From the IMG/VR virus record IMGVR_UViG_641509434_000001, positions 1 through 64,000 of that record: a DNA stretch of 64,000 nucleotides. One strand, given 5' to 3'. The notes below the pieces were generated by a model. It did not search any database. It saw nothing but the letters and a program-made list of their open reading frames with translations, and was not told the DNA's origin. Made by a program: the position numbers and the translations under genes. Below are positions 930 to 54,924 of this stretch, in pieces. Each line of letters opens with the position of its first letter. The stretch's first letter is position 1. The stretch comes from a virus. Taxonomy: Duplodnaviria; Caudoviricetes.

Positions 930-974
930 GGGCTTAGACTGTGTCTTGTAAGTCGATGCGTAAAGCATTAACCC
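930..974 (+). ncRNA. 45-nt structured repeat element, copy 1
   Basis: ggg-ctt-agac/tgt/gtct-tgt-aag-tcga-tgc/gtaaa/gca-ttaa-ccc; three further copies with covarying stems. Confidence 0.7.
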
Positions 975-995
975 ATTAAACTAAGGAGAAATAAA

Positions 996-1382
996 ATGAT
1001 TAAGACTATTAAACGTGAACTATTTGATTAACATGCTGCAGAAATTGTTAGTGCATACATTATAGGTGAGAAAGATATTGCTTGGATCTATGATAAAGAG
1101 TCACCATCACTTGACAAGTTAAAAGCTCATCCTGGAGCTAATCCAGTTATTGAACCAGATCATATTGTAGATATTGACAAAGTAGATGATGACGATGCAG
1201 AATATACTAATGAAGTAGTACCTACTGTCATATATGAAATGTTCTCAGAAGAAGACGATGAATACTTGAATGTACTATGTGACATAATTATCACTGAAGG
1301 TATTCCACTTAAAGATATGGGTCAAATGGGAATTAAGTATGAATATGGTGGCTTAATAAACATGCTTGTAATTGAAGACTAA
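996..1382 (+). pseudogene. acidic 128-codon ORF interrupted by in-frame TAA at 1029-1031
   Basis: AAGGAG RBS and ATG at 996; the frame stays open for 116 codons after the TAA. Confidence 0.6.
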
Positions 1383-4796: not shown

Positions 4797-5350
4797 TGAC
4801 AAATAAATTACGTATTGCAGAACTTGCTGAAGGCGAGGAACTGGCTAACCCTAATGCAAAAATCTTAGAAGAGATTAATGTAAAAGATCGAGACTTCAGC
4901 AAGTTAGTCTTATTGAAAGGAGATCCATCATATGAACATATTAGCGAGTGGTTAATTAGACATAAAGAAGACAAAGACTTACTTGACTTAATCAAAGTAA
5001 CTCCAACTATTAAGGATAAGATTAAGAAAAGTAAGAATTTTATGTCAGGAACAGTTATATTCGAAGCACGAGATGCAATGGATGAACTAGAATTCTTAAG
5101 ACAAAGAAGTATGAAAGATCTAGTATTTGTAATCTATCGTGCAACACCAAATGGACATAGACCAATGTTGGAATATGGAAATATCTATGAAGGAAGATAC
5201 TATAATATGTCATCTAAAATCATGGAAGACTTAGAAGAATATCTAGGTCGAGTAGAAACAAACAATGCCAATGGGATAGTAACTGTTATGCCAAATAGCA
5301 AATATACATTGGAAGAATTTAAAGACGTGCTTAACAGCTGGGTAAATTAA
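4796..5350 (+). CDS. hypothetical protein upstream of RNA polymerase 1
   Basis: 184-aa ORF coupled to the ligase (TAATG). Confidence 0.75.
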   Translation: MTNKLRIAELAEGEELANPNAKILEEINVKDRDFSKLVLLKGDPSYEHISEWLIRHKEDKDLLDLIKVTPTIKDKIKKSKNFMSGTVIFEARDAMDELEFLRQRSMKDLVFVIYRATPNGHRPMLEYGNIYEGRYYNMSSKIMEDLEEYLGRVETNNANGIVTVMPNSKYTLEEFKDVLNSWVN

Positions 5351-5376
5351 GATAATATTAGAAAGATCATAAGGAA

Positions 5377-7209
5377 ATGACAAGTTATATTGAACTATCA
5401 CTCAAATTTGAAGAAGGCGTAATCAAATCAGGAAGCAATATGGATCTAATCAGAGAAAATGCATTAAATGACTATGATAGATATATTGCTTATACAAAAG
5501 ACATTCATGATATTCGTGCAATTAAGACTCTACAAGAGTTCTCAATTCTTGCCGATTATGATACTGGTGTGGTAACGTCTGTAGTAGATGCAATATATAA
5601 AATATTTGCAAGAAGTGAAGCACGTAGAATCTCAGCATTATATTGCTATCTTAAAGGTCTAGAAGAAAGAGGTATTCATGCAGTACTTGTTACTTCTGGT
5701 AAGAATTATGCAGTATATAACTCAGATACAATTTCATCAGTTTGCTATACATCAGTTGAAAGCGAAAGTAAACTATCTGAAGTATATGACGAACTTGGAA
5801 TTAACACTCGAGTATATGAGGTAATCGCAGATGCACAAGGAACATCAACAGAACTCAGAATAGGTAGCATTGATGCTTGTTATTGTGCAAGAAAAATTCT
5901 TAAAGATTTCTTCCCACATATTATTACTGTAATGTATGTTGCAGGTAAAGAAATTGAACTGTATGATATTCCAGAATTTGGACTTCCAAAAGTGGAACAA
6001 AGAGTAGTTATCAAGAAACCAAAGATCTCATCATCAGTACGAGAACTATTATCAGAATCTTATGACATGGACTTCTTACATCAACTTGAAGATCAAATTG
6101 GGGAGTTTAGTCATAAAGGAACTCCACTAAAAGGTCAATTCTTCTATGACTATCGTGGAAGAATCTACTGGCAAGGTAACATCAACTATCAAGGTGAAGC
6201 AGAAAATCGTGACTTGGAAGTTGAAGGAGGAGAATGCTGGGAATATGATGCAACATGCTCAGGTATTCAACTAGGTTCTCTACTATCTAACAATGTCAAA
6301 ATGATGAAACAATGTAATGTCATAGATACTGGGGAAGGCAAACAAGATGCTTATCACTATATCTCAACTAAGACATGTGAAGACTTCGGATATGGTACAA
6401 ACTTTGGAATCACCAAACCTGTATATCATATTACAGACGAAGAACTCAAAGAGAACAAAGACGGCGAATGGGTAGAACCTAAGAAAATGGCAAGAACTAT
6501 TTGTAAGAAACCTCTTATGTTATTGCCTTATGGTGCAGCTGCTCAAACTCTCATTGGTAGTTCTAAAGCTGCCGCAAGAGAATACTATACTGATGTAAGT
6601 GCAACAGTACATGTATTCTCAGAAGATGATGCTAAACAACTTGCTAAAGATGTCTACAAAACAGTGAAGAAAGAAATCAATCGAGAAGCAACTTATAAAG
6701 TAATTCTTGATAACTTCATTTCAGTAGAAACATTGGAAATCAATGGTAAGGAGAAAGGTCAGTATGTATCTTGGAAAACTCCAGATGGGCTTGAAGTTAA
6801 CTCATATTCTAAAGTGGGAATACGAGAAGTAAGTGCAATGGACAAAGATAGCTTACTGCATGATAAGAAACTTACTAAGATTACACTTATTCTAGACGGA
6901 GTAGAATATAGTAAGAAAGTATCATACACATCTGGATCTAACATCAAGTTCTTCAAGAACAATGTTCCAAATGTAGGACAATTAGTTCCAAACTTTATTC
7001 ACAGCTTAGATGCAACTGCATTACGATTTGTAAGTCGTAAACTTATTGAACAAAAGATTCCAGTTGCAGTTATTCATGACTGTGTAATTGTACCTAAACG
7101 TGTAACACAAGATCATATATCTGCATTGTTCAGAGAAGCATATCAATTCATTGCTGACTACTTCGGAGTAGATGTAACAGTAACTGGAGCGATTGTCTTC
7201 CCAGAATAG
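5377..7209 (+). CDS. T7-family single-subunit RNA polymerase 1
   Basis: DYRGRIY, motif A YDATCSGIQ, motif B RTICKKPLMLLPYG, PNFIHSLDA, motif C VIHDC. Confidence 0.93.
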   Translation: MTSYIELSLKFEEGVIKSGSNMDLIRENALNDYDRYIAYTKDIHDIRAIKTLQEFSILADYDTGVVTSVVDAIYKIFARSEARRISALYCYLKGLEERGIHAVLVTSGKNYAVYNSDTISSVCYTSVESESKLSEVYDELGINTRVYEVIADAQGTSTELRIGSIDACYCARKILKDFFPHIITVMYVAGKEIELYDIPEFGLPKVEQRVVIKKPKISSSVRELLSESYDMDFLHQLEDQIGEFSHKGTPLKGQFFYDYRGRIYWQGNINYQGEAENRDLEVEGGECWEYDATCSGIQLGSLLSNNVKMMKQCNVIDTGEGKQDAYHYISTKTCEDFGYGTNFGITKPVYHITDEELKENKDGEWVEPKKMARTICKKPLMLLPYGAAAQTLIGSSKAAAREYYTDVSATVHVFSEDDAKQLAKDVYKTVKKEINREATYKVILDNFISVETLEINGKEKGQYVSWKTPDGLEVNSYSKVGIREVSAMDKDSLLHDKKLTKITLILDGVEYSKKVSYTSGSNIKFFKNNVPNVGQLVPNFIHSLDATALRFVSRKLIEQKIPVAVIHDCVIVPKRVTQDHISALFREAYQFIADYFGVDVTVTGAIVFPE

Positions 7210-7219
7210 TCTTTAACTC

Positions 7220-7264
7220 AGGCTTTGGTAAGACCATGTAAGTCGATGCGTAACGCACTAACCT
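7220..7264 (+). ncRNA. 45-nt structured repeat element, copy 3
   Basis: agg-ctt-tggt/aag/acca-tgt-aag-tcga-tgcg/taa/cgca-ctaa-cct. Confidence 0.7.
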
Positions 7265-7288
7265 AATAAAGAAAGAAGAGAAAATAAA

Positions 7289-7897
7289 ATGGCAAAACAT
7301 ACTAAACAAACTAACAAATCTAACAAGATGCTTAAAGTACTATCAATTACTATTTGTAGTATTATTGTTGTAACAGCTGGAGTATTTCTAGCTATCAACT
7401 TAACTTCTCCTGGCAAGACTCCAACTAAGTCTTTCCATACTACACAAAGTAGTACTAAACCAAGTTCAACTACTGAAGAATCTAACCCAACTGAGTCTAC
7501 TAATGAAAAGTCAGTTCAATCGCAGGGATCAGATGTAACAACAAGAGAAGAATCTACAGCAGAATCTTCTAAACTTGCTGAATACAAAGACGATGCACTA
7601 TCTACTTATAGTGTTGTCTATACTGATTCTAGATATATTGTATCTGCAAATGGTAAAGGACAATACTTTGTAACATCAGCAACTGGTGAAGATGTACTTA
7701 GAAGTGCTCGAGTACAAGAGTGGGTATTCCTTCTTAAAGAGATGGGAGTACAAGACTTAGGTACTATTGATCAATCTAAAATGAATGATATGGTTACTGG
7801 ACTTTCAGTAAACATAAATGAACCATTTAAACCATCTGCTGGACCTGTATACATCTATACTGATAACACGCCTGCGGCATATTCATTAGAAAATTAA
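7289..7897 (+). CDS. membrane-anchored protein with S/T-rich linker (possible superinfection exclusion)
   Basis: Basic N-terminus, one TM helix, S/T/E-rich spacer; function is inference. Confidence 0.6.
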   Translation: MAKHTKQTNKSNKMLKVLSITICSIIVVTAGVFLAINLTSPGKTPTKSFHTTQSSTKPSSTTEESNPTESTNEKSVQSQGSDVTTREESTAESSKLAEYKDDALSTYSVVYTDSRYIVSANGKGQYFVTSATGEDVLRSARVQEWVFLLKEMGVQDLGTIDQSKMNDMVTGLSVNINEPFKPSAGPVYIYTDNTPAAYSLEN

Positions 7898-7908
7898 GGA
7901 GAATAATA

Positions 7909-8106
7909 ATGACAAAGAAATATACATTAGTTGGAATTAGCAGTAATGCATTTGCAGTAATGGAATATGTAACGCGATGCATGATAAAAGAAGGAAAATC
8001 AAGGGTACAAATAAAAGAATACAGGAAAGATGCAACTAGTTCAAACTATGACCACCTTCTTAGTGTTTCAGTAGCAATGATTACAAGGTTGAATAAAGCT
8101 ATCTAG
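7909..8106 (+). CDS. conserved small phage protein
   Basis: LVGxxxNAF...Y..DA.S.NYDHLL pattern, recognised from phage hypothetical proteins. Confidence 0.65.
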   Translation: MTKKYTLVGISSNAFAVMEYVTRCMIKEGKSRVQIKEYRKDATSSNYDHLLSVSVAMITRLNKAI

Positions 8107-8130
8107 AAACAAAGGTAACTAATAATATAG
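8104..8130 (+). promoter_or_regulatory. phage RNAP promoter (27-bp family)
   Basis: tagaaacaaaggtaactaataatatag; its 3' end overlaps the start of structured element copy 4. Confidence 0.55.
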
Positions 8131-8173
8131 GCTTCAGTTAGACTGTGTAAGTCGATGTGCAACTCACTAACCT
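8129..8173 (+). ncRNA. 45-nt structured repeat element, copy 4
   Basis: agg-ctt-cagt/tag/actg-tgt-aag-tcga-tgtg/caa/ctca-ctaa-cct. Confidence 0.7.
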
Positions 8174-8300
8174 ATTAAATAAAGAGGAGTTAACAAATCG
8201 CAAATGAAAATCAATGCAAAAATTAAATCTCATATTCAAAGAGAAATACTAAACGTTGTCGATAAAATTATTAACAATCAATCAGAAGGAAATAAATGTA

Positions 8301-8531
8301 ATGAAATGTGAAAATTGTAACCATAATAAAATGCTTCATGTAGATGATGGACGACTTGAAAATGGATCAGGTTTCGATAATTATATGTGTCCAGTTTGTT
8401 TAACTAAATGTTATATTAAATTCTTATCAAATAAGATGGTAGCTAAAAATTGGACATTTAAACAACAATATCTAATTCGCAACGAAGATCTTGTCCGTGA
8501 AGCATATCATAATGGTCAAACAGGTTGGTGA
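8301..8531 (+). CDS. small Zn-ribbon protein
   Basis: CENC...CPVC. Confidence 0.65.
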   Translation: MKCENCNHNKMLHVDDGRLENGSGFDNYMCPVCLTKCYIKFLSNKMVAKNWTFKQQYLIRNEDLVREAYHNGQTGW

Positions 8532-8666
8532 AAACCAAGCATTAGTAGTAGAAGTATCTTATGACGAAAACAACAAGCGTACACTTAAGACACAATGCTT
8601 GGATACATTCTTTATGGGAGAAAAGTCATAAGATACATTGGGTATCTACAATACGGAGGAAGTAAA

Positions 8667-8915
8667 ATGAAACTAGAAGAAATAGAACAAGTAGTTAATG
8701 ATATCAGATTTGAAGAAGTTAGAGAGTCTGAACTTGCTCAAATGATTTATGCATTCAACAGTAAACAACTAGATATGGAAGAAAGAACTACTATTACTTC
8801 AAATGGCTATAGCTGCTATGTTTCAACTCAAGCATTCTTAGCATTAGTTACTAGAGAATTAGAAGAAGTCAAAAATAGAATTGTCACACTTAAAGCAAAG
8901 ATTGGAGTAGAATAA
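8667..8915 (+). CDS. hypothetical protein
   Basis: GGAGG RBS before ATG 8667. Confidence 0.65.
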   Translation: MKLEEIEQVVNDIRFEEVRESELAQMIYAFNSKQLDMEERTTITSNGYSCYVSTQAFLALVTRELEEVKNRIVTLKAKIGVE

Positions 8916-8970
8916 TGCTAGTTAGAAAGCTTAAAAGTGCTACTATAGCATGTGAAGGGAGCTTACTGTA

Positions 8971-9150
8971 ATGAAAAAGATCTGGAACTTTATAGCTGTA
9001 TTTGTATTGACACTACTATTCGGTATGTTTTTAACTAATATTACAGACTACTTTGAGGCTCATGCAGACATCTCAGAATGGATAATCTCAATTGCAGTAT
9101 CCGCATATGTAGCTATTTTGTGGATCGTAGAAAATAGAAAGAAGAACTAG
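8971..9150 (+). CDS. small 2-TM membrane protein (59 aa)
   Basis: MKKIWNFIAVFVLTLLFGMFL...WIISIAVSAYVAILWIV; GGAG RBS. Confidence 0.65.
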   Translation: MKKIWNFIAVFVLTLLFGMFLTNITDYFEAHADISEWIISIAVSAYVAILWIVENRKKN

Positions 9151-9334
9151 AATGAACTTATCAACAAATGACATTTACAGTGATGAAACTGTAGCAAAAT
9201 GCTATGTATGTAATAAGCATCAAATTGGAGACAATAGAGAACTATATGAGTCAGGTTGGCTACACTTTGCTGATACAGACGATTATATATGTAAATAATG
9301 TAGGATTAGATTGAGTAAAAAGAGGACAAATAAA

Positions 9335-9577
9335 ATGGACAAATCATTTATGAACATCGCATCGCTTAAACTTGCTGAATATCTTGGCTGTGAACAAGAA
9401 GACATTTATGTAGTATGGATGAGTAAGAATCTTCAAAACATCAAAGGTATGTTCTCAAGTGATGTACCTGCTGCAAAAGGCATGTACTATGAGCTTACTT
9501 ACAATGGAGACAAGAAAGAACTCTACATTGATAGTTATAAGAAACAAAAGAACGAATGCATTAAAGTAGAATTATAG
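9335..9577 (+). CDS. DUF6275-like phage protein
   Basis: YVVW.SK.LQN.KG...GMYYELTYNGDKKELYIDSYKK signature. Confidence 0.75.
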   Translation: MDKSFMNIASLKLAEYLGCEQEDIYVVWMSKNLQNIKGMFSSDVPAAKGMYYELTYNGDKKELYIDSYKKQKNECIKVEL

Positions 9578-9587
9578 GAGAAATGAA

Positions 9588-9890
9588 ATGACTGAATTTG
9601 ATGCACAACAAGAATTGCTGTATGCTATTGAAACTTCAACTATAACAATGACTTCAGCAATCAACCTTCTAGAAAAAACAATGCCAAAAAGGCCAGAACA
9701 AAAAGTTTCTGGATACATAGATTTATTGTCTAGACTTAACGAGTCCGTAGGTCGCAATAATATGCTTGCACAGTTAATTAAGTCTGATGAACGTAAGAAA
9801 ATGGAAGAGAAACTTGAAGCAGAACGTAAGAAGAAAAAGAAACTTGAAGAAGCTGCTATCATTAATAATTTTAAAGAGGGGACTAAATAA
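9588..9890 (+). CDS. hypothetical coiled-coil protein
   Basis: GGAG RBS. Confidence 0.7.
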   Translation: MTEFDAQQELLYAIETSTITMTSAINLLEKTMPKRPEQKVSGYIDLLSRLNESVGRNNMLAQLIKSDERKKMEEKLEAERKKKKKLEEAAIINNFKEGTK

Positions 9891-10189
9891 TGCCAACCAA
9901 TCTACCAAAAGCTAATTTGCCTTACTATGCAAACCAGCATGGTATTCAACTAAAAGAATTCATGACAGAGTATGACAAATTCTTATACACTCAAGGATGT
10001 TATTGGTCTGCATTGAAGTATCACATTCGTGCTGGTAAGAAAGAAGGCGAATCACTTGCTAAAGATATTAAGAAACGTGATGACTACATCAATGACTTGA
10101 TTGCATTGGACTGGTTAAATAATAAAGAAGAAATCATTGAAGAACTTGAATACACCAATAACAAATTTGAGAACTATAGAGGAAAATAA
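9890..10189 (+). CDS. DUF3310-like protein
   Basis: ALKYHIRAGKKEGESLAKDIKK matches the KY..RAGxK...D..KA signature. Confidence 0.65.
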   Translation: MPTNLPKANLPYYANQHGIQLKEFMTEYDKFLYTQGCYWSALKYHIRAGKKEGESLAKDIKKRDDYINDLIALDWLNNKEEIIEELEYTNNKFENYRGK

Positions 10190-10190
10190 C

Positions 10191-10643
10191 ATGAATAATT
10201 CTAATAATGAGGACTTGAGTATAAGTAAATTAAAATTACTGGAAACACATGATTATGTAGCTCCATCCTTAGTAAATGCATATATTGATGATAGAGCTAA
10301 GCGTAAACGCTTCGTAAATTACTGTAATTCAAATCATATACCTACAAATATTTATCACAAGAAAGAATGCAACAAAGAACTAGTAAAACATATTCTTAGT
10401 ACAACTCCAGTAGATATAACTAATCTAATTAAGTCTGAAATAAGCCCGGAACTTATAGATAACTTGACACTAGATCAATATATAGACCTTGCTTTAGATC
10501 CAAATTGCACTAAAGTATATCTTAAGGAGTTTGCTTTTAATGAACACTTCGCAGTAAGTAGCTTTACTCCTAATAGGCTCTCTGTGTTCAATGCAAGATT
10601 CAGGGTACACGATGATATAGTTGACTGGCGACAAAAGCACTGA
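10191..10643 (+). CDS. hypothetical protein
   Basis: GAGG RBS before ATG 10191. Confidence 0.65.
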   Translation: MNNSNNEDLSISKLKLLETHDYVAPSLVNAYIDDRAKRKRFVNYCNSNHIPTNIYHKKECNKELVKHILSTTPVDITNLIKSEISPELIDNLTLDQYIDLALDPNCTKVYLKEFAFNEHFAVSSFTPNRLSVFNARFRVHDDIVDWRQKH

Positions 10644-10668
10644 GATACAAAAATAACTATTATATAAA
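10642..10668 (+). promoter_or_regulatory. phage RNAP promoter (27-bp family)
   Basis: gagatacaaaaataactattatataaa. Confidence 0.6.
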
Positions 10669-10692
10669 TAAAGAAAGAAGAGAATTAATAAA

Positions 10693-11733
10693 ATGGCAGA
10701 ATTAGTAACAGCATCAGTTGAAGAAGCAGTAAATGCAACATTTAAGTACTTCGACGAATTTGAAAACAATGATAATCTTAAGTATAATGAAAGATTTGTG
10801 CCTATCTTCATATCTAGACCTGGAGTAGGTAAGTCAGCATCAATTGCTGCTAAATCAGCAGAACGTGGTCGTAAGTTAATCACATTGAATCTTGCATGTA
10901 TTGAACCAGTAGATATCTTAGGACTTGGTGCACGTGAGAAAATCAATGGTAAATGGATAACTAGAACAGCCTTGCCTGAGTGGGCAATGAGTGCACTACA
11001 AGGCAATTGTGATATTCTTGTTGATGAATTCAACAACTGTCAACCAGAAACTCTTGCAGGTTTCCAAATCATGTTCTCAGCATTTGAAATCAATGGTTGG
11101 CAACTTCCAAAGACAACACACATTATTGGTGCATGCAACCCTCCTGGGGATGATGCATTAGTTGCTGCTAATCAATTATCTGGTGCCTTCCGTAGACGTT
11201 TAAGTTTCATTCCAATTGCTGATACATTTGAATGGGTTGAAACTAAGTACAAATTCAAAGTTCCACTTGACTTCCGTAAACAAGATATGCTACCTATCTC
11301 AGAATACATCAACTATCAAGGGGTCAACTCTGCCAATGTAGATGATATGATGAGAATATGTGAAACTAGCTCACTTACTAACAAAGAGAAATACTTATTA
11401 GTAGAAGGACTTGGATCTAAAGTACGAGCTCTTGCCTCTAAACTTGGTAAACTTACTGAAGAAATGATTGAATATGAAGTACTTCGTTCTGACGACGGCT
11501 TCACTTATAAAGACTGGGTATCTGATCCTGTAGATGAACCTGAAATCATGACTCAAATGGGCTGGATGAATCGTAGACTTACAAGTACTAGTACATATTC
11601 CCGTGCTAAAGGCTTCGTAGGTAGAATCAAGAATGTTCAAGTATATAATGCTGCATTTGACATATTAAATGAAAAATTCGAAGCAGATATTGTAACAGAT
11701 GACACTAAACTGTCTAGAATGGAAACTAAGTAA
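10693..11733 (+). CDS. MoxR-type AAA+ ATPase
   Basis: Walker A SRPGVGKS, Walker B ILVDEFN, sensor-1 GACNP, arginine finger AFRRR. Confidence 0.85.
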   Translation: MAELVTASVEEAVNATFKYFDEFENNDNLKYNERFVPIFISRPGVGKSASIAAKSAERGRKLITLNLACIEPVDILGLGAREKINGKWITRTALPEWAMSALQGNCDILVDEFNNCQPETLAGFQIMFSAFEINGWQLPKTTHIIGACNPPGDDALVAANQLSGAFRRRLSFIPIADTFEWVETKYKFKVPLDFRKQDMLPISEYINYQGVNSANVDDMMRICETSSLTNKEKYLLVEGLGSKVRALASKLGKLTEEMIEYEVLRSDDGFTYKDWVSDPVDEPEIMTQMGWMNRRLTSTSTYSRAKGFVGRIKNVQVYNAAFDILNEKFEADIVTDDTKLSRMETK

Positions 11734-11735
11734 TC

Positions 11736-13550
11736 ATGGCTGTACCGCACGTTAAACGTAACTTTAAATATGGGGATTTATATAATTCAGAAGCTGAGGT
11801 ATTAGATTCGAACAAAGAGGACGTTGTACTCTCTTATGAAGATCTAGCAGCTTACAAAATTGGTAGAGACTATCTTAATTTCATATTTGAAAATGACTTT
11901 ACTATTCATCTTATGTATAAATTCCCAGATGGTGATCCTCAAATCGCTTATACTACATTAGATACAAAAGATATGTATATCAATGGGAACTATCCTACAA
12001 ACATCATATCATCATTGCTGAAACATGAACTAGGTCACTTCATGATATTTGGAACTGACCAACCTTACTCAAAAGACGATTACTCAGTTAGATCCTTAAT
12101 TGTTAAGGAAGTCTACAGTAGATTCAATTTAAAGAAATATTCAGTAGAATTCTTGATGCATATTGAAAATGTAATTCAAGATATTATCATTGAAACGCTA
12201 AACTACCCTGAATGTGTATGTGAAACATTTCATATATATGGTCTAGATAAGAAAGGTGTCAAACATCAACCTTACTTAGATCCAATATCAGATGTAGTTA
12301 AAGAAGCTCTTAAGACTCAACTAGCATTAGCTGAAGATAAAAGATCTTATGTTGACAGTGAAATTGCTCAGAAGATGAAAGATTTCTTGGAAGAAAGCTT
12401 AAATGATGCTATTGCTACTATGAATGGTATCTCAGATAGATATATAAAGAGAGAAGCTAAAGATCAACTTAAAAGTCAAATCACAAGAATTAAGAATAAA
12501 ATCAATAAAAAAGATGATAAACTTAAGGAACTTCAAAGACTTAAAAATGCTGGAAGACCAATACCTGATAAGTTGATAGATAAAGTCAAAAACCAACTTG
12601 AAGAACTTAAAGATAAAGTATCTAATGAAGCACTAAAGGATGAACTTAGAAGAATTGTAGATAGAAATAAGAATAGACGTGATAAGGAAATTGCTAAACT
12701 GGAAGAAACTAAGAAAGCTCTTCAACACAACCCTGGACCACCTGAACATATAGATGAACGTGAGGGAGATGGTCATTCTTGCTCAACTTACATTCCTTCA
12801 AAAGACTCTATCAAAATCTCAAATAAAATGTATAAGATGTCTTATACTAAACTTAAGAACAAATTGTTCAAGTTGAGACAAATCGAGTCTCCTAAGACAT
12901 TTGATAAGGGAATGGCATCTGACAAAGATGGTAATATCTTGACACCTAAGAGAGAAAATACTTACACTAGAACTTCTAAACTTGAATATGACAATACTGA
13001 CATGTTACAAGGTAAGAAGAAGAAACGTTCATCAGGTGTATCTATTTTGATTGGACTAGATGTATCTGGCTCAATGAACAGTCAATGGGTATCTAAATTC
13101 AATGACACTGTTAAACTTATCAAATCTGTGTCTAAGTCACTTCAAATTCAAGAACCTGTAATGTTTACTTATGGTGACAGGCTTGGTACTGTATCTAGTA
13201 GTGAACACACAATTCAAGAAGCTATCAGAGAAAGATCTGGTGGTGGAGGTAATGCCTTCGGTAAAGTATATGAACAACTTATTCGAGAAGCACCAATATC
13301 AACATACACGGAAATCATACTGATAACCGACTGTGGTGACAATCTAGGTTGGGACATTCAATCTCCAATTAAAGGTGTAAGTGAGAAAGAACTTAAGATG
13401 CACTGTTCTGTACTTGACACTGATGGAATGATTGCTGACCGACCAGACCAACTATGGCAAAAAGATAAATGGTCATACTACAATACTAACAACATAAATA
13501 TGTCTTCTATTGCTAAGAATATAGCTAAGACAATCAGAACTAACAAATAA
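11736..13550 (+). CDS. HExxH metallopeptidase-like / coiled-coil / vWA protein (DUF2201-like)
   Basis: LLKHELGH; central K/E coiled coil; MIDAS motif DVSGSM and ITD; adjacent to MoxR. Confidence 0.8.
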   Translation: MAVPHVKRNFKYGDLYNSEAEVLDSNKEDVVLSYEDLAAYKIGRDYLNFIFENDFTIHLMYKFPDGDPQIAYTTLDTKDMYINGNYPTNIISSLLKHELGHFMIFGTDQPYSKDDYSVRSLIVKEVYSRFNLKKYSVEFLMHIENVIQDIIIETLNYPECVCETFHIYGLDKKGVKHQPYLDPISDVVKEALKTQLALAEDKRSYVDSEIAQKMKDFLEESLNDAIATMNGISDRYIKREAKDQLKSQITRIKNKINKKDDKLKELQRLKNAGRPIPDKLIDKVKNQLEELKDKVSNEALKDELRRIVDRNKNRRDKEIAKLEETKKALQHNPGPPEHIDEREGDGHSCSTYIPSKDSIKISNKMYKMSYTKLKNKLFKLRQIESPKTFDKGMASDKDGNILTPKRENTYTRTSKLEYDNTDMLQGKKKKRSSGVSILIGLDVSGSMNSQWVSKFNDTVKLIKSVSKSLQIQEPVMFTYGDRLGTVSSSEHTIQEAIRERSGGGGNAFGKVYEQLIREAPISTYTEIILITDCGDNLGWDIQSPIKGVSEKELKMHCSVLDTDGMIADRPDQLWQKDKWSYYNTNNINMSSIAKNIAKTIRTNK

Positions 13551-13556
13551 GAATTG

Positions 13557-13609
13557 GACTGAACTACCTTCGGGTGGTTCGGTCTTATTCTTTCTTTTTT
13601 TTTTTTTTT
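13557..13609 (+). terminator. intrinsic terminator
   Basis: gactgaactacc-TTCG-ggtggttcggtc stem followed by a long T tract. Confidence 0.9.
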
Positions 13610-13615
13610 AGAACA

Positions 13616-13667
13616 AGTTAATATAATTATACTGCTTATCAAAGAACATAACCGCAGGATAACTGCC
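13616..13667 (-). repeat. 52-bp conserved intergenic element, copy C
   Basis: Reverse complement ggcagttatcctgcggttatgttctttgataagcagtataattatattaact aligns without gaps to 3 other copies. Confidence 0.8.
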
Positions 13668-13686
13668 TGATTATCTTACTATTTTC

Positions 13687-13713
13687 TAGATACTATAGTT
13701 ACTAATACAATAT
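13687..13713 (+). promoter_or_regulatory. phage RNAP promoter (27-bp family)
   Basis: tagatactatagttactaatacaatat. Confidence 0.65.
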
Positions 13714-13735
13714 AATAGATAATTAAGGAGAACCT

Positions 13736-14050
13736 ATGACAGTAGATGTAAATGTTACTATTGACGAGGGAGCTTTTACTGACGAAGAAGTCATGGAAGC
13801 TTTACTTAAAATGAGACCAGCATATTTAACAGATCACAGTGAGCCAGTACCTTACTGTGATATTAAAGATATACACTTTTGCTACCCACCTTCAATTATT
13901 AAATGTGCAATAGACTTTGATGAAGCAGGCAATGTAGCAGAAATAGATTTAAATGAAGAAGTTATCAAGGAATTACTTGAAAAAGAAGATACTTCTGAAG
14001 AAAATAAAGAGGAAAAGGAAGAGGAAGATGAGCATAGGTCTATACATTGA
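13736..14050 (+). CDS. highly acidic hypothetical protein
   Basis: AAGGAG RBS; D/E-rich with poly-E tail. Confidence 0.75.
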   Translation: MTVDVNVTIDEGAFTDEEVMEALLKMRPAYLTDHSEPVPYCDIKDIHFCYPPSIIKCAIDFDEAGNVAEIDLNEEVIKELLEKEDTSEENKEEKEEEDEHRSIH

Positions 14051-15506
14051 TGGCGAAATTAGATCATTAGATACTAAAATTGACAAAATGGTTACAAAAA
14101 CAGGTATTTCTGTTGATAATATTAGTGTAGAAGATACTATTCTTATTCATCCAATTGCATTAAATGCTGCTATTCCACGTAATTTGTCTATAGAAGCAAT
14201 CAGTACAGTTTATGAAGAGAACTTTGAATTACTTAGAGAATTATCTGTTGAAGGAGAAAATGCTTTAGGTGGAGCAATGTTTAATGATGTAACAGGATAT
14301 AGAAATCATAGACTTAGAACATTAAGTGATTCTGTCATATTAAATAGACCTCCTGGTACTGACGGTTTTGATGAAGAAGAAAATAAAGAAGATTATGTCT
14401 GGGAGTATGATTGTATGAATGCTTTCATGCATATTATACCATTCAACTTTACCATTGATAAAGAACCTAAACCTCTAGTAAATACTAATAAAGATGGTAA
14501 AAATGGCGCTTCTTACTCTGATAAATATATTCAAGATAGTTGTATTCTTCCAGAGCCATTAAGAATTCATTTAGTTGATTATAGTAAGAAACAAGATAAG
14601 TCTAAAGTAGAAATGTACTATCATAAAGAAGGTAAATATTACTTAAATGCAACAGTAGCAAGTTACTACCGTTACAGAGAAATGAGAAAAACTGACGGAG
14701 ATCTTAAACAGATTGTAAGTTATTTCAATGAGAAGTATAAGTATCTAGGAGAAAATTTAGATTTTTCTAAGTTAGTATATGGTCTATATCTTTCTGGTAT
14801 ATTCTTGAAATTGCCTAAAGAAGAAGCACAAAAACTTAAAACAGCAATGGACTGCATTTCTACAGTTGTGTCAGAATATATACTGACTAATTCTAGTGTT
14901 AGAAAAGCATACATTAATTTAGATAGCATTGTTACTAAAGAGCCTTGGGATGATGATTTTAAGTACAATTTATATAGAGTAAAACAAAAATATGAACCTC
15001 TTACAGGAGGGAATATCATTGAAAGTTTTAAGAATACTCTCAGAATAAACGAACTACAGTATTTTACAAGAGATGAAAATATTCCCTCTATTATGGGTTG
15101 GTACTCTGCTGATATTGAAAGAATACTTAAGAATTATCCTGACTACAAAGCCTATCATATTGATATTCATGCAGCTTATGTTAATATTGCTAAAGAATTA
15201 GCTAATATTAACATAACTAAAAATGAAACTGGAAAAATCAAGTCAGCTAACCCATATCTGTATCAAGAAATTTGTGATAGAATCTCTAAGAGGAGTATCT
15301 ATCTTACACATTATTTTGAAGATCAAATGACTGTATTCTGGCAAACAGATGGTGGACTTTGCTTAATAAAAGACAACATAGATGTTACAAACATGATAGA
15401 AGAAAATCAAGATGTTGTAATAGAACAAGTTGTAGGTAGAACTGTACATAAACTACCAAGAAGCTATAAACATAGATTTTTTACCACAAACTATGTTGGC
15501 TTCTAA
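14028..15506 (+). CDS. protein with two degenerate PolB-like palm motif sets
   Basis: WEYDCMNAF...YINLDSI and YHIDIHAAY...WQTDGG; start at the ATG after GAGG; family call tentative. Confidence 0.45.
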   Translation: MSIGLYIDGEIRSLDTKIDKMVTKTGISVDNISVEDTILIHPIALNAAIPRNLSIEAISTVYEENFELLRELSVEGENALGGAMFNDVTGYRNHRLRTLSDSVILNRPPGTDGFDEEENKEDYVWEYDCMNAFMHIIPFNFTIDKEPKPLVNTNKDGKNGASYSDKYIQDSCILPEPLRIHLVDYSKKQDKSKVEMYYHKEGKYYLNATVASYYRYREMRKTDGDLKQIVSYFNEKYKYLGENLDFSKLVYGLYLSGIFLKLPKEEAQKLKTAMDCISTVVSEYILTNSSVRKAYINLDSIVTKEPWDDDFKYNLYRVKQKYEPLTGGNIIESFKNTLRINELQYFTRDENIPSIMGWYSADIERILKNYPDYKAYHIDIHAAYVNIAKELANINITKNETGKIKSANPYLYQEICDRISKRSIYLTHYFEDQMTVFWQTDGGLCLIKDNIDVTNMIEENQDVVIEQVVGRTVHKLPRSYKHRFFTTNYVGF

Positions 15507-15702
15507 TAGAATATTTGCTTACTCTATATTTGTAGGAAAATCTAAGAAAGATAGTACAATAAGTCAATATTATGCAAATAACTTCAAACTTTATTTGAAG
15601 AACATAATAAAAAATAATAGTATAAAAGGAGTAGTAGATCTAGACATGTATGGTCTAATTAAGACTATAAGTGAGTTTAGCAATAATAATGATGGAAAAT
15701 AG
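15493..15702 (+). CDS. hypothetical protein
   Basis: ORF track; overlaps neighbours. Confidence 0.45.
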   Translation: MLASNRIFAYSIFVGKSKKDSTISQYYANNFKLYLKNIIKNNSIKGVVDLDMYGLIKTISEFSNNNDGK

Positions 15703-15973
15703 TAAGTCAATAAAAAATGCTAGTAAGATTTTCACCTTAAGGTTTCAACTAGATTTAGATGAAATAAAAGAACTCAATGGTACATCTATTCAAGAAAACA
15801 AAGAATTCGCTTATAGAATTGATCATTCTGATGGGAAACATATTCATTCTGAGTTTTACTTTACTGAAGAATTTCTTAAATATGAAGATTTAATACTTAA
15901 GCATTTTGAAATGGAAGGCCTAGTAAATATACCAATGTATATAATGATAGACATCCTTTCTGGTTACCAGTGA
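15671..15973 (+). CDS. hypothetical protein
   Basis: ORF track; start uncertain. Confidence 0.55.
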   Translation: MSLAIIMMENSKSIKNASKIFTLRFQLDLDEIKELNGTSIQENKEFAYRIDHSDGKHIHSEFYFTEEFLKYEDLILKHFEMEGLVNIPMYIMIDILSGYQ

Positions 15974-15986
15974 TTGGAGGTTATAA

Positions 15987-18449
15987 TTGGTAGATTTAAA
16001 CAAATTATCTGGGTTTGGGCAAAGAACTCTAGATAGCATATTCACAAGATCAAAACTAGAAAGTATGGTTGAAGAATATGAAAAAACAAAAATGAAAGAA
16101 ACTATTGAAGATGCTGTAATTGATGAATTGCTATCTATTAGTAGCGTACCTACAGGAACAGTATCAATTCCTAACTTGAAATTGTCTTCTTCTAAAGTAG
16201 GAGATGAAGAATGGGAAGTAGAGATTAGCGGTGTTATTCAATCAACTATAGTTAAGAAAGGTATATGGTCTCCTTCGATAATGGTAAAACTAGAAGGCGT
16301 AGTCCCTAGAGAAAGACCAGTTATCAATGGTAAAATACCAGCATCTTCAGTAAAAGAAGACGAAGTAAACTCTGATTTATCAAACCCTAGATTAAGTACA
16401 TTAGGTCTGTCTAGAGATGAAGTATCTAACATAAAGAAATTTCTTGACAAAGAGGGCATTAGATATAAAGACAATTCTGACATGGGTCTGAATCAATATA
16501 TTGAATTACGAGACATTCCTATGTCATCTGACTTATCTTCATTAGGTACATATTCAGGTAGAATAACTTACCCAACAACGCAAGATTCTACAGACATGGG
16601 GATTACCCCCTTTGATCCTAGAACCCTTACATTGTCAAACCCCACAATTGAATCTATTGCTGAGGGTAGCAAAGAAAAATTAGCTAACTCAAAAGCAGCT
16701 TCTATTATGTCTGACACGCCATTGAAAGTTTCTGAAGAATATGCAAAATCATTACCAGATGTTGTAAGTGGTAATGCTGATGCTGTACACAGTCAACTGA
16801 CAAAACTTAGGTCTGATGACTTTAAGCGACTTAAGAATGCAGCAACTGAGTTAGAACCTTACATGAAAGATTCTAAATTTGCGGAAGCAGCAAGTAAAGG
16901 TAAGTCATTTGAGTATCAAGAACAACTGTCTGATAGTGACAATAAGAAAATTGAAGCAATTAGAAAAAGATACAGTATTGATGCTGATGATTTGAAGAAG
17001 ATTGCTATGTTTGACAAGAACAATCTTAAACTTTCAGATGGTCGTAATCTTAACATTCTTACTGATACAGAATCTTTTAGTGAGTCTAAATCATTATCAA
17101 ATAATGCAAGACGTAAAAGTGACAATAAGATGAACTTCTCACTTCACACTATTAATGGTGAACGTATGTATGTTTATGGTGGTGACTCATTCTTGGACAA
17201 TACAGACTTACGGGAAAATATTGCATTTGAACCTAATAAGAAAAAAGCAAAACAAATTGCTTTATCTGAGAAAAAGATGAAAGAATATAACAGAAATCTT
17301 AATGAAGCATTAGGTGGAGCTCTTATTGAGGATAAAGTCATCAATGGTGGTAAACATAAATATCGCAGTGATGAACTTGAAAACTTTGCAAAAGACTTCA
17401 TGAAATCTGATATTGACTATGATAATCTTTCTCCACGTATTAAGACACTTATTAATGCTAAGAAGAAAGCAGAAAAAGGTGAGGTTGATACATCTACAGC
17501 AGTCACACTTGATGCGACCTTCTCTGGACTTGTTGTAACGTCAGGTATTCTTGGTCGTAAAGATGGACTTGATAAGGTCAACATTGTACCAGAAGGTGAA
17601 AAAGTAGGAGAAATGCATGACTTATATACTGAAGTCGGTAAAGACTTAATTAAAGATCTTACTGAGTATGGTATGGATAGTCATGCAGCACGTAAATTAG
17701 TTAAACCAGGTGTCATGCCTGCAATGTATAACTCTTCTCAACGTGCACGTGCTACAAAACTTAGGGAAGAACTTAAAGACTATTTCCATGAGAAAACTGA
17801 CATGAGTGAATCTGAGATTAAGGAAGCAATTACTAAATTGAATCCAAACATTCAGAAGACAACTCAAGATGCGACAACTATTCTTATGGGTAAAGTCAAT
17901 CCTAAAAGTATCATTGGTTTGAATAAGAAAGGCATTGTTAAATTATACAAACCAAAAGAAGGTACAGAACATGAAGGAGAAGTAGAAGAAATTAAGAACC
18001 CTACTGAAGATGACTTATTTCAAGTTTCGGCTTATAAGATTAAGCATCCAGATGGCAAAGTTTCATATTCTGCTAGAACTGAAAACAAAGTATCTAGAAC
18101 TGTTGATGGTAAAATCTCAGTATCAAAAGATGCACTTTCAGTACCTTATGCTAAAGTCAATAAGATTGATAAGAATGGTAAAGCAAAATCACGTGATAAT
18201 ATGGGACTATTGATGAACTCAATGGCTCCAGGTATTGCACGTCACATGGACTCATATGTAGCTTCTACAGTTATCGAGAAAATGCATGACAAAGGTGTCC
18301 CAATCGTCACAGTTCATGACGCGATGATTGTTCCAGTATATGCAATGAACACTCTTAAAGATACTTACAATGACGCAGTCAACTCTCTATATAAATATAC
18401 TGGTTCAGATATCAGAGTGGATGCTAGAAATAACTTGAGTGTGGAATAA
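15987..18449 (+). CDS. second single-subunit RNA polymerase (divergent; candidate virion RNAP)
   Basis: GGAGG + TTG start; NGERMY (DxRGRxY equivalent), motif A TLDATFSG, motif B ARKLVKPGVMPAMYN, APGIARHMDS, motif C VTVHDA. Confidence 0.85.
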   Translation: MVDLNKLSGFGQRTLDSIFTRSKLESMVEEYEKTKMKETIEDAVIDELLSISSVPTGTVSIPNLKLSSSKVGDEEWEVEISGVIQSTIVKKGIWSPSIMVKLEGVVPRERPVINGKIPASSVKEDEVNSDLSNPRLSTLGLSRDEVSNIKKFLDKEGIRYKDNSDMGLNQYIELRDIPMSSDLSSLGTYSGRITYPTTQDSTDMGITPFDPRTLTLSNPTIESIAEGSKEKLANSKAASIMSDTPLKVSEEYAKSLPDVVSGNADAVHSQLTKLRSDDFKRLKNAATELEPYMKDSKFAEAASKGKSFEYQEQLSDSDNKKIEAIRKRYSIDADDLKKIAMFDKNNLKLSDGRNLNILTDTESFSESKSLSNNARRKSDNKMNFSLHTINGERMYVYGGDSFLDNTDLRENIAFEPNKKKAKQIALSEKKMKEYNRNLNEALGGALIEDKVINGGKHKYRSDELENFAKDFMKSDIDYDNLSPRIKTLINAKKKAEKGEVDTSTAVTLDATFSGLVVTSGILGRKDGLDKVNIVPEGEKVGEMHDLYTEVGKDLIKDLTEYGMDSHAARKLVKPGVMPAMYNSSQRARATKLREELKDYFHEKTDMSESEIKEAITKLNPNIQKTTQDATTILMGKVNPKSIIGLNKKGIVKLYKPKEGTEHEGEVEEIKNPTEDDLFQVSAYKIKHPDGKVSYSARTENKVSRTVDGKISVSKDALSVPYAKVNKIDKNGKAKSRDNMGLLMNSMAPGIARHMDSYVASTVIEKMHDKGVPIVTVHDAMIVPVYAMNTLKDTYNDAVNSLYKYTGSDIRVDARNNLSVE

Positions 18450-18877
18450 TGGCATTTTTCAGTGGTTTTATGATGAGAGATGATAAGTTCTATGCAAAAG
18501 TTTTTCATGACACAGACTATCTCCTCATTGATATGAATACAGGAAAAGAGTACACATCTAAAGATGATTTCGATTTGTTAGATGAAGAGAGCACAAGAAC
18601 TCTCAGAGGTGGCATATTCGCTTACATTTATAGTGATGTACTTTTTCAAGTAGGTTTAGCTTTGACTAAACAACAATATAGGTTAGCAAAAATGCTACAT
18701 AGTGCTGTATGTAACTACATTGAGCAGGAATACTTTGGATATGAAAGCCTTGTAGAATCATTGAGCATAGACTTCTCAGTTACTGTGTTTGCAGGAACAT
18801 GTAGAATTGTTGATCATAGCAACCCCAAAAAGGAACTAGTAAAAGCATGGAAAAATGCTTGTGACTGGATATCTTGA
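18449..18877 (+). CDS. hypothetical protein
   Basis: Coupled to RNAP2 (TAATG). Confidence 0.7.
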   Translation: MAFFSGFMMRDDKFYAKVFHDTDYLLIDMNTGKEYTSKDDFDLLDEESTRTLRGGIFAYIYSDVLFQVGLALTKQQYRLAKMLHSAVCNYIEQEYFGYESLVESLSIDFSVTVFAGTCRIVDHSNPKKELVKAWKNACDWIS

Positions 18878-18886: not shown

Positions 18887-18913
18887 GAGATACAAAAATT
18901 ACTAATAACATTA
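18887..18913 (+). promoter_or_regulatory. phage RNAP promoter (27-bp family)
   Basis: gagatacaaaaattactaataacatta. Confidence 0.65.
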
Positions 18914-18944: not shown

Positions 18945-20072
18945 GTGGAAGATAATGATTACTGGTTGATAGAAAATTCCCCTTTTATAGATTTTCCTAA
19001 GATAATGAGTAAAGATTGGATAATTGGAGTATTGATTACTGGACGCAATCAAGGAAAAACATTTGGTTGGTGGCATTATTTTTATAAAGCTGCATTTCCT
19101 ACTAGAGAGGCATTTTGGAATGGTGAAATACATGAAAAGTTTGGTTCTATAGTAGGTAATCTACTAGAAGTAACTACTACAGATATGCAAAAATCAGCAG
19201 AAGATGTGCTGATGCCATATCTTGAAACAGGTCAGCAGGTTGAATTAGTTGTTCGAAAAGCTCAATGCTATTTGAGAATAATTTCTATCAATAATAAAGG
19301 CTTTAAAGAAGTATACTATGAACAAGTCATAGGAGTATATGCTTCTTTATCTCAACCTAATACAATGCGCCGTATTGGTGAACAAGGTATTACACTTGTT
19401 CTTATTGAGGAGTGCAACCCTGAAAAGGAAAATCATCCATTCGTAGGTAATGATACTTCTAAACTTTCATCTATCATAAAATCTATTACAAAAGGTAATG
19501 AAGATGAAAAACCAGTACGTATCCTCGCTATTGGTAACCAACAACTATTCCCATCAACAGTTCTTAAGTTTCTTAAGTTTGACGAAAATGACTTAGGTCT
19601 TAAAGATGGTCGATTATTCTTAATGGTTGACAGGCCTAAGGGGTTTAAGAAGAAATATGAAACTCTTATCTCAGATAATAGTGACTATGATAACTTTTCT
19701 AAACGTAAGTTAAATGATATTACTGAGCTAAAAGCTAAAAAAGAAACATATATTGAAAAATTTAAAGAAGTTCAACCAACAGTGTTTATTACAAACAACC
19801 AAGGAGTTTCTGTTGCTGGTTGGGTAACTCGCTTTGAAGGACGAGATGTACTATTTACAGTTTCTGATATTAAAGACTTATCAGAGTTCAGTGATAGTCT
19901 TGCTTATGAATTAAGTCCATTTACAGCAGAACGTAAACGGTTTGCTATGCAGTTGGATATAGTAAGAAAGTACTACTATATGAACTCAGTTGTTGTAGGT
20001 AAAGACGACCGAGATACTTATTATAGTTTGAACACTCTTGGATGTATTCCAAGCAAGAAAAGAGGAATTTAA
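18945..20072 (+). CDS. phi29 gp16-like DNA packaging ATPase
   Basis: N-terminal Walker A ITGRNQGKT, Walker B VLIEE; size and context. Confidence 0.7.
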   Translation: MEDNDYWLIENSPFIDFPKIMSKDWIIGVLITGRNQGKTFGWWHYFYKAAFPTREAFWNGEIHEKFGSIVGNLLEVTTTDMQKSAEDVLMPYLETGQQVELVVRKAQCYLRIISINNKGFKEVYYEQVIGVYASLSQPNTMRRIGEQGITLVLIEECNPEKENHPFVGNDTSKLSSIIKSITKGNEDEKPVRILAIGNQQLFPSTVLKFLKFDENDLGLKDGRLFLMVDRPKGFKKKYETLISDNSDYDNFSKRKLNDITELKAKKETYIEKFKEVQPTVFITNNQGVSVAGWVTRFEGRDVLFTVSDIKDLSEFSDSLAYELSPFTAERKRFAMQLDIVRKYYYMNSVVVGKDDRDTYYSLNTLGCIPSKKRGI

Positions 20073-47896: not shown

Positions 47897-47923
47897 GAGA
47901 TACAATAGTTACTAATACTATAA
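47897..47923 (+). promoter_or_regulatory. phage RNAP promoter (27-bp family)
   Basis: gagatacaatagttactaatactataa, directly after the terminator. Confidence 0.75.
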
Positions 47924-54863: not shown

Positions 54864-54924
54864 GAGATACAATAGTTACTAATACTATAGATTAGTTGAG
54901 ATACAAAAGTTACTAATACTATAG
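54864..54924 (+). promoter_or_regulatory. tandem pair of phage RNAP promoters (34-bp period)
   Basis: gagatacaatagttactaatactatag (54864) and gagatacaaaagttactaatactatag (54898). Confidence 0.8.

Follow-up and report, generated by a model that had tools for sequence, protein, structure and literature searches.

Why does one phage carry two single-subunit RNA polymerases (RNAPs), and where does the second of them act? The question is raised by two open reading frames (ORFs), at 5377..7209 and 15987..18449, in the window analyzed here, which comprises the first 64,000 bases of the 79,232-base virus record IMGVR_UViG_641509434_000001. The window is that of Lactococcus phage KSY1, and the two ORFs are gp014 (RNAP1) and gp033 (RNAP2): the 820-amino-acid (aa) product of the second is 'Gp033 [Lactococcus phage KSY1]', BFVD rank 1, with 100% identity over 820 aa, and 'Gp014 [Lactococcus phage KSY1]', of 610 aa, stands at rank 26 in the BFVD search with the AlphaFold2 (AF2) model of gp033. 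As an answer, it is proposed that gp033 is made late, packaged in the particle and injected, as a free-standing miniature counterpart of the virion RNAP of phage N4; we regard the case for and against this proposal as evenly poised.

That KSY1 has two RNAPs is not new, because a 2024 review (PMC11476376) already reports both genes. According to its section 2.7, the 2007 genome paper mentions a single T7-like RNAP, HHpred reveals two T7-like RNAP genes, gp014 and gp033, and gp014 is likened to the enzymes of Autographiviridae and Schitoviridae; gp033 is credited with 'only minor traces of similarity' and a BLAST E value of 0.3 to an N4-like phage. That section gives no role, structure, relatives, cascade, promoter assignment or virion hypothesis for gp033, and of the KSY1 DNA polymerase it says only that none that is T7-like or phi29-like is present. 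A literature search (supplements outside its scope) found no text on a virion role of gp033, and no paper combining KSY1 and rifampicin. As far as the literature searched shows, the reading of gp033 as a packaged mini-polymerase is not in print; new here are the model of gp033, the conservation of its motifs, the co-occurrence of the pair, the promoter layout and the cysteine make-up.

Both ORFs exist as the first-pass annotation had placed them, and both pass the Pfam family RNA_pol (PF00940), whose cut-off is 22 bits. The match in gp014 scores 63.1 bits (E 2.8e-17, residues 290-572) and that in gp033 31.0 bits (E 1.6e-7, residues 487-802); in the whole record PF00940 is found at exactly these two places. 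The PHROG RNA-polymerase families 414 and 2051 match the two proteins alike. Motifs A, B and C with both catalytic Asp, which had been claimed for each ORF, were confirmed at the claimed positions by script search, all on the + strand. In gp014 they are motif A YDATCSGIQ (6244-6270), motif B RTICKKPLMLLPYG (R..K...M...YG; 6493-6534) and motif C VIHDC (7069-7083), accompanied by YDYRGRIY (6145-6168) and PNFIHSLDA (6988-7014). In gp033 they are motif A LDATFSGL (17508-17531), motif B RKLVKPGVMPAMYN (17691-17732) and motif C TVHDA (18309-18323), accompanied by TINGERMY (17148-17171), HPDGK (18045-18059) and APGIARHMDS (18225-18254). The features taken to define a T7-type RNAP, namely PF00940, motifs A and C with the two Asp, and the R, K and Y of motif B, are present in both. 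A T/DxxGR-type motif occurs in each of them as well. Judged by their motifs, gp014 and gp033 are two genuine, catalytically intact single-subunit T7-type RNAPs.

The divergent member of the pair, gp033, begins with a TTG codon at 15987, which is backed by GGAGG 8 nucleotides (nt) upstream and by a homologue beginning MVDLNKL at the same place. Its motif B carries YN for the usual YG, as had been noticed earlier, and this substitution is invariant in all 16 full-length homologues, which reach down to 33% identity. The same 16 sequences keep GERMY, DATFSG, R-K..K...M.AMYN, HD[AS] (HDA in 14, HDS in 2) and, exactly, the C-terminal NLS[VT]E. Such invariance is not due to chance: it shows that selection acts on the enzyme and that YN characterizes the family. 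PF00940 matches 12 of the 17 rows of the gp033 alignment (A2, fragments included) at E<=10. Eleven matches to gp033 at E<=0.001, three of them full-length, were obtained among 1.84 billion representatives, and a profile search added six more relatives with 61-93% identity. No match was present among 50,697 phage records, and no relatives were found in IMG/VR, in JGI metagenomes or, via gp014, in GTDB genomes. One 1398-base metagenome contig (P0007) holds a 340-aa ORF in which a GIY-YIG-like endonuclease N-terminus is fused in frame to residues 38-199 of a gp033 homologue, followed by divergent sequence; this suggests a homing endonuclease or intron inserted into the polymerase gene of a relative.

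The AF2 model of gp033 calculated from the 17-row alignment had a predicted local distance difference test (pLDDT) score of 82.1 and a predicted template modeling (pTM) score of 0.74, as against a pLDDT of only 36.9 for the single-sequence model. Absence of the Pol A fold from a predicted structure had been named beforehand as a finding that would count against RNAP2; instead, residues 204-817 of the model superpose on residues ~264-883 of T7 RNAP (VIA Z 22.4, 436 aligned, root-mean-square deviation 5.3). The corresponding Z scores were 22.2 for human mitochondrial RNAP, 16.6 for the N4 mini-virion RNAP (mini-vRNAP), 15.5 for N4 RNAPII gp16 (against residues 433-818) and 13.6, with 290 aligned, for Bst Pol I. 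The same ranking came from an all-against-representatives search, and Foldseek agrees. In the model, the palm, fingers and thumb of gp033 thus resemble those of RNAPs more closely than those of Pol I DNA polymerases.

The polymerase part of gp033 occupies residues ~205-818. The first ~200 residues, confidently modeled and rich in β strands, are predicted to form three helices, a β meander and a small α/β unit, and no convincing match to them was found in structure, Pfam or KSY1-ORF searches. A wide fold search returned generic small α/β matches only for residues 132-198 (Z 5-6.6), and BLASTP of residues 1-205 and 206-500 against all KSY1 ORFs detected no common domain. A possible peptidoglycan-binding domain at 107-200 (PDB 4xxt, E 0.49) was rejected, since Pfam scans of 17 family members gave it no support. 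The ESM Atlas provided leads only: residues 1-480 scored 0.93 to RPOL_N/RNA_pol clusters and residues 1-205 scored 0.83, and there were weak leads from gp033 to clusters in which 12-14% of the members have PF21867.

The annotation had described the N-terminal halves of the two polymerases as unrelated, and at sequence level this is borne out. BLASTP aligned only residues 533-602 of gp014 with 743-811 of gp033 (70 residues, 21% identity, E 5e-5), and profile-profile comparison with hhalign only 282-604 with 500-813 (probability 95.9%, E 6e-9); the common part runs from motif A to the C-terminus. The phylogeny that had been called for was calculated for 35 RNAPs. In this tree, made by a quick method that gave long-branch warnings and leaves the deep forks open, the seven gp014-family rows and the five of the gp033 family form separate clades with 100% support, with stem lengths of 2.15 and 2.64 substitutions per site. 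Separate clades on such long stems argue that gp033 is not a recent copy of gp014.

The two genes apparently also travel together in other phages. Seven members of the gp033-homologue cluster lie on contigs of 60,949 to 63,449 bases, and all seven of these contigs above 60 kb equal in bases the longest contig of a gp014 homologue; in addition, a 782-aa gp033 homologue (P0004) and a gp014 homologue (P0045) are both on 8,814-base contigs. From the equality of contig sizes alone, gp014-like and gp033-like genes would appear to share uncultured phage genomes of ~62 kb, and to lie within 8.8 kb of each other in one. Near-identical DNA was detected in metagenome runs from dairy, fermentation, food and wastewater, and the relatives in runs X1, X5, X12 and X15 gave no transcript ends; all 24 runs listed consist of contigs, those of RNA having small shares.

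The first polymerase, gp014 (5377..7209, + strand), is a compact T7-type RNAP of 610 aa encoded in the early left arm. Its key motif residues are invariant in a 12-sequence alignment (A3), and its family profile reaches T7 RNAP with E 4e-11 in an alignment that includes WxTPDG, the opening segment of the specificity loop. It has 38 homologues; a search of IMG/VR with gp014 returned T7-like and N4-like phages only, with 22-30% identity. We infer that gp014 is an intracellular enzyme, and that it serves the eleven promoters of the repeat family A, which is most simply assigned to it.

Family A was one of three repeat families that the first-pass annotation had offered as candidate cognate signals of the polymerases, and its members are T7-like promoters. 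The consensus is GAGATACAATAGTTACTAATACTATAG/A. All eleven sites, starting at 8106, 10644, 13689, 18889, 47899, 54866, 54900, 67005, 67049, 70676 and 76968, are on the + strand and intergenic, and the next best score of the position weight matrix (PWM) in the genome is 8.3, within the range of shuffled sequence. The 3' end, ACTATAG/A, resembles the consensus of T7-type promoters, and the conserved part reaches ~26 nt upstream. Family A is presumably the published KSY1 promoter set; Chopin and colleagues reportedly described T7-like promoters in 2007, along with 14 structural proteins on gels.

The left arm is closed by an intrinsic-terminator-like site at 13556-13610 (+), with a 13-pair stem followed by a run of 15 T, which is the only + strand site of the kind in the first 20 kb. 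It is followed by the A copy at 13689..13713 (+; 3 mismatches, all in the initiation part, PWM 37.9), ORFs of 104/517, 69 and 100 aa, gp033, a 142-aa ORF, the A copy at 18889..18913 and the terminase gene. The operon that contains gp033 spans 13736-18877. As it starts at a phage-type promoter behind a terminator, production of gp033 should have to wait for an active phage polymerase, and since there is no further + strand terminator-like site onward to 20000, transcription can run on into the terminase gene. The earlier statement that RNAP2 lies just before the packaging and virion genes was correct: past the 142-aa ORF come the terminase-like gene (18945-20072, +; phrog_2150, E 1.8e-10), the upper collar gene (from 24350, +) and the major head gene (from 26814, +). 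A cascade, which the annotation had also inferred, is in view of this promoter and terminator likely in some form.

The cysteine content of gp033 gives a new and calibrated argument on where it acts. There is no Cys in its 820 aa, where the proteome average predicts 6.4; a Cys-free chain of this size has a probability of 0.0016 under the proteome rate, whereas with the 1.06% of the non-virion arms it is 0.00016, and with the 0.49% of the virion/lysis block 0.018. Eight of the 16 homologues are likewise Cys-free and the other eight have a single Cys, seven of the latter being near-identical members of one cluster. Among KSY1 ORFs of at least 200 aa (n=38), Cys-free products are gp033 and 4/20 from the virion-related block at 18.9-52.7 kb, including the major head protein and a transglycosylase, and 0/17 from the other arms.

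As a positive control, ORFs with PF21867 over its cut-off were taken from four N4-like IMG/VR genomes (G001, G003, G004, G005; L054-L057). All four of these virion RNAP ORFs (3422, 3583, 4173 and 3496 aa) have 0 Cys, against 0.9-1.3% Cys in neighboring ORFs. As a negative control, 20/20 non-virion RNAPs from viral contigs hold 5-18 Cys (ten T7-like RNAPs, 5-18; three 570-aa RNAPs, 5-9; seven resembling the N4 RNAPII large subunit, 5-8). All 38 gp014 homologues have 4-15 Cys and gp014 itself has 10, so that non-virion RNAPs combined give 58/58 with 4-18. Among the single-subunit RNAPs sampled, a Cys-free chain distinguishes the injected enzymes from all others, and gp033 sorts with the former; this mark is empirical and no textbook criterion, calibrated on four positive controls, all from hosts unlike Lactococcus. 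A rationale is offered by the statement in PMC2823432 that Firmicutes keep cysteine out of exported proteins. A Cys-free chain may be a general sequence mark of injected polymerases.

As a whole the earlier interpretation is partly supported, and its idea of a mini virion RNAP gains the cysteine argument. The A promoter at 13689, behind the strong terminator, would drive the gp033 operon on into the terminase and virion genes, and gp033 would be made late along with virion parts, a timing suggested by the observed layout. It would then be packaged and delivered with the DNA into the next cell, like the 3500-aa virion RNAP of N4, and its extra N-terminal domain of ~200 residues might serve packaging or entry. 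Inside the cell, the leading (left) genome end would be transcribed by gp033, or drawn in with its help, up to the point where gp014 takes over.

Several observations weigh against such a role. The fold of gp033 is nearer to the T7 and mitochondrial RNAPs (Z 22) than to N4 mini-vRNAP (Z 16.6), and the sole solved relative reached by its profile is the non-virion N4 RNAPII (E 3.9e-6); the BFVD/UniProt name is merely 'Gp033'. Unlike N4 gp50, gp033 has no large N- and C-terminal domains. The N4 vRNAP domains PF21867 (vRNAP_dom_2) and PF21894 (N4_RNAP_helical) gave no match to gp033 at E<=1, and they are absent for the gp033 homologues from the 25 families listed at E<=10. The gp033 gene lies upstream of the A copy at 18889, outside the virion block. 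Other proteins of that block do contain Cys, such as the 1437-aa tail protein with nine, and zero Cys is therefore a mark and not a rule. A cognate early promoter for gp033 was not found in the cis-element searches. Finally, in the work of Chopin and colleagues only the late growth stages of KSY1 are said to be rifampicin-resistant; host RNAP would then be needed early, and an injected early transcriptase would be unnecessary.

Family B, with three copies in the leftmost 10% of the genome, was a candidate for such a promoter. The copies, all on the + strand, are at 930..998, at 7220..7288, which begins 11 nt past the RNAP1 stop codon, and at 8129..8197, which abuts the A copy at 8106; they lie 20-35 nt ahead of start codons. 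Each has GGCTT, a 4-bp variable stem, a 3-nt loop, TGT and AAGTC, followed by GATG...TAACC and a ribosome-binding site. The conserved GGCTT...AAGTC helix surrounds a stem whose sequence differs in each copy with pairing always kept: 27/27 cells are paired and 4/4 inner pairs are compensatory, which was equaled in 0/500 shuffles. A fourth stem variant was present in a relative (run X1). Folded as DNA, however, the hairpins reach only -1.4 to -2.6 kcal/mol, which does not improve on shuffles, and a retained G-U pair would on the template strand become a C-A mismatch, two further points against an injected gp033 that would start at them. Folding energies as RNA were no better than shuffles either. 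Family B reads better as RNA leaders or processing sites than as N4-type DNA hairpin promoters, although a promoter role is conceivable. The most far-reaching form of the proposal, in which gp033 is the smallest known virion-packaged RNAP (820 aa, free-standing), in a phi29-related phage of a Gram-positive host, with the family B hairpins as its early promoters, is considered unlikely.

The four copies of family C, each of ~60 nt, at 13618-13673 (-), 26733-26800 (-), 31383-31445 (+) and 33699-33761 (+), are intergenic, two per orientation, and share an invariant GTATAATTATATTAA that includes the palindrome TATAATTATA. One copy separates the terminator from the A promoter at 13689, and another immediately precedes the major head gene. 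Since both orientations occur in an all-rightward genome, a directional promoter is unlikely; family C is more likely a binding site for a dimeric protein, or could work as a -10 box of host type that can be read from either strand. A k-mer search covering 43 intergenic regions yielded nothing beyond ribosome-binding sites and family A. Rfam gave nothing at gathering score in the window, and two chance-level matches in 800-8400. Sigma-70 scans were no better than shuffles (94 vs 95.1 expected; 69 vs 73.8 expected).

The injected polymerase has its most serious competitor in a gp033 that stays in the producing cell. Host RNAP would be followed in the cascade by gp014 and then by gp033, acting at this second stage as a late or auxiliary transcriptase; the 29-kb virion/lysis block might pass under its control, or it might sustain left-arm genes after host shut-off. 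The same layout suits it, with the terminator, the A promoter at 13689 and the gp033 operon just ahead of the late genes, and N4 RNAPII, the nearest solved sequence relative, is a non-virion enzyme. The rifampicin result, reportedly sensitive early and resistant late, fits without extra assumptions. The A copy at 18889 is among the more divergent of the eleven (6/25, in the initiation part) and could need another enzyme, but it keeps the upstream A element, which gp014 should bind too. No second directional promoter family is present in the virion block, where the PWM scan finds 18889 alone and family C occurs in both orientations. Left unexplained is the presence of 0-1 Cys across a family diverging to 33% identity, as against 4-18 in 58/58 non-virion RNAPs. 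Nor do we know of a phage in which two single-subunit RNAPs, neither of them virion-borne, act one after the other. An intracellular gp033 is possible, if doubtful.

The assignments could also be reversed, with gp033 as the main enzyme of the eleven A promoters and gp014 as a bridge from the host, perhaps at family B. T7-like phages place the first promoter of their own just after the RNAP gene, and a family B copy begins 11 nt past the gp014 stop. The A copies upstream of gp033 are all off-consensus and most of those far downstream are at or near consensus; gp033 has a PDG motif and then a β-hairpin region where the T7 specificity loop lies. The authors of 2007, according to section 2.7 of PMC11476376, knew one polymerase only. 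By profile, however, it is gp014 that is T7-like (E 4e-11, via WxTPDG), whereas the gp033 profile fails to reach T7 RNAP at E<=10. The covarying stems of family B are unlike any double-stranded T7-type promoter, and gp033 would need read-through of the strong terminator at 13556. The reversal is judged improbable.

That gp033 works mainly outside transcription, for instance by priming replication or as a motor hauling the 79-kb genome into the cell, is very improbable. Such a role would be in keeping with the absence of any promoter family assignable to gp033, and with the invariant YN for YG, which is unusual next to the sugar-discriminating tyrosine; N4 polymerases have been implicated in genome injection and replication (PMC4496689). 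Against this, the phage has its own primase/helicase and DNA polymerase, motif B has R, K, M and Y as in RNAPs, and the model resembles RNAPs (Z 22) more closely than Pol I (Z 13.6). A decaying, inactive paralogue, for which the low Pfam score (31 bits) and the lack of matches among the 50,697 phage records could be adduced, is hardly credible given an intact reading frame, a confident model (pLDDT 82.1) and 16/16 homologues with all catalytic motifs and the exact C-terminus.

The remaining features of the genome are described in order from the left. In the X1 and X5 relatives, 413 nt (986-1398) are missing between repeated ribosome-binding-site stretches, with a joint of 985 to 1399 at 13 shared letters, and in the X5 relative 7883-8098, with a 65-aa ORF, is replaced by 13 letters; left-arm indels seem to form at repeated leader sequences. 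The A copy at 8106..8130 (+) has 5 mismatches and a PWM score of 29.9, and its predicted +1 is the first base of the third family B copy. The weak eleventh site, 10644..10668 (+), scores 18.1 against 11.1 for the best of 20 shuffles and lies upstream of the ATPase gene at 10693. Together with the copies at 13689 and 18889 these make up the four left-hand A sites, all off-consensus in the initiation part.

The 142-aa gp034-like ORF (18449..18877, +) belongs to no family. The sequence TAATG holds both the stop codon of RNAP2 and the overlapping ATG of this ORF, a sign that the two may be translationally coupled. Homologues were found in close relatives only (96% and 73% identity), one of them on a contig of 7216 bases, as is an RNAP2 homologue; a role for the product as a partner subunit of gp033 was considered and dropped for this restricted distribution.

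The A copy at 18889..18913 (+) stands before the terminase gene and the virion/lysis block; it differs from the reference copy at 6/25 positions, keeps TTACTAATA and scores 35.1, and from 18.9 to 47.9 kb there is no other A site. The block itself (18.9-47.9 kb) is mid-genome, in a phage whose genes are all rightward, and ends at a terminator-like site (47869-47890). Right after the major head gene, at 28167-28213 (+), lies a 20-pair hairpin with a weak T tail, which could be an attenuator raising head-protein mRNA over that of downstream genes. A tandem duplication of ~1.5 kb at 41726-45772 (41830-43058 vs 43339-44567, with an identity of 83-98%) lies between 53-nt repeats at 41726 and 45720 (98%) and spans minor-head/baseplate-like and tail-protein genes (phrog_8913, phrog_7911); its first copy looks truncated, with 199 and 168 aa vs 299 and 452 aa.

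Directly behind the terminator-like site, the consensus A copy at 47899..47923 (+) precedes a unit headed by a Cys-free transglycosylase-like ORF (48072-48719, phrog_4602), whose product fits a virion-borne wall-degrading enzyme. Two tandem consensus copies (54866 and 54900, together 54866..54924, +) stand before the replication genes, and the record has four more beyond the end of the window (67005, 67049, 70676 and 76968). Five of the seven right-hand copies are at consensus or 1 off; those at 70676 and 76968 are 3 and 4 off, in the initiation part. The right end, downstream of consensus A copies, holds the replication genes, namely exonucleases, a primase/helicase (57055-58440; phrog_2597, E 6.7e-39) and a DNA polymerase (895-aa ORF, 63412-66099 of the record; phrog_17, E 2.7e-101). 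The notion that gp033 is the missing DNA polymerase of KSY1 was ruled out, as the phage has its own DNA polymerase and primase/helicase.

If gp033 is injected, the N4 strategy exists outside Schitoviridae, in a Gram-positive host, and in a form four times smaller than gp50, which would provide a tractable 93-kDa model for the packaging, ejection and refolding of a polymerase. With 820 aa, gp033 may then be the smallest injected RNAP known. It could also be a new compact orthogonal RNAP for biotechnology. Were the family B hairpins its promoters as well, KSY1 would combine an N4-style injected start with a T7-style program. In sequence data generally, injected polymerases would then be recognizable by their Cys-free composition, and the cysteine control is a cheap and testable mark for them in metagenomes. 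As KSY1 is in culture, on a harmless dairy host (Lactococcus), a direct test is possible.

One of the known systems closest to KSY1 is that of N4 and the Schitoviridae, with gp50 (mini-vRNAP, PDB 2PO4 and 3C3L) and RNAPII gp15/gp16 (PDB 6DT7). According to PMC4496689, the injected RNAP of N4 is complemented by a second one, T7-like and encoded early. Both phages thus have two single-subunit RNAPs, one encoded in the early left arm and the other beside the virion genes. In KSY1, gp033 is Cys-free like the N4-type vRNAPs and gp014 is Cys-rich like the RNAPII large subunits, and the three hairpin-bearing repeats in the leftmost 10% of the genome recall the three early promoters of N4. There are also differences. 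gp033 has 820 aa as against 3423-4175 aa in the N4-like ORFs sampled (one cut at 2593), and a fold nearer to T7 RNAP; KSY1 also differs in its Gram-positive host, its phi29-like virion genes and the weakness of its hairpins when folded as DNA. All KSY1 genes point rightward and the late ones have T7-like promoters, whereas the late genes of N4 point leftward and use host RNAP (PMC4496689). Nor does gp033 match N4 RNAPII, whose two small subunits, gp15 and gp16, have 673 aa together according to PMC4496689: gp033 is one 820-aa chain, only its residues 433-818 align to gp16, and N4 RNAPII is without a promoter-binding N-terminal domain.

The T7-like phages (Autographiviridae), with one early RNAP gene and promoters of ~23 bp, provide a further parallel. 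gp014 is nearest to T7 RNAP by profile, and the eleven A sites, co-directional and intergenic, end in ACTATAG/A like promoters of the T7 consensus. Unlike in T7, the early enzyme is short (610 aa vs 780-860 aa in the ten T7-like RNAPs sampled), the promoter is conserved to ~26 nt upstream, the virion block is mid-genome with the replication genes at the right end, and there is a second RNAP, gp033.

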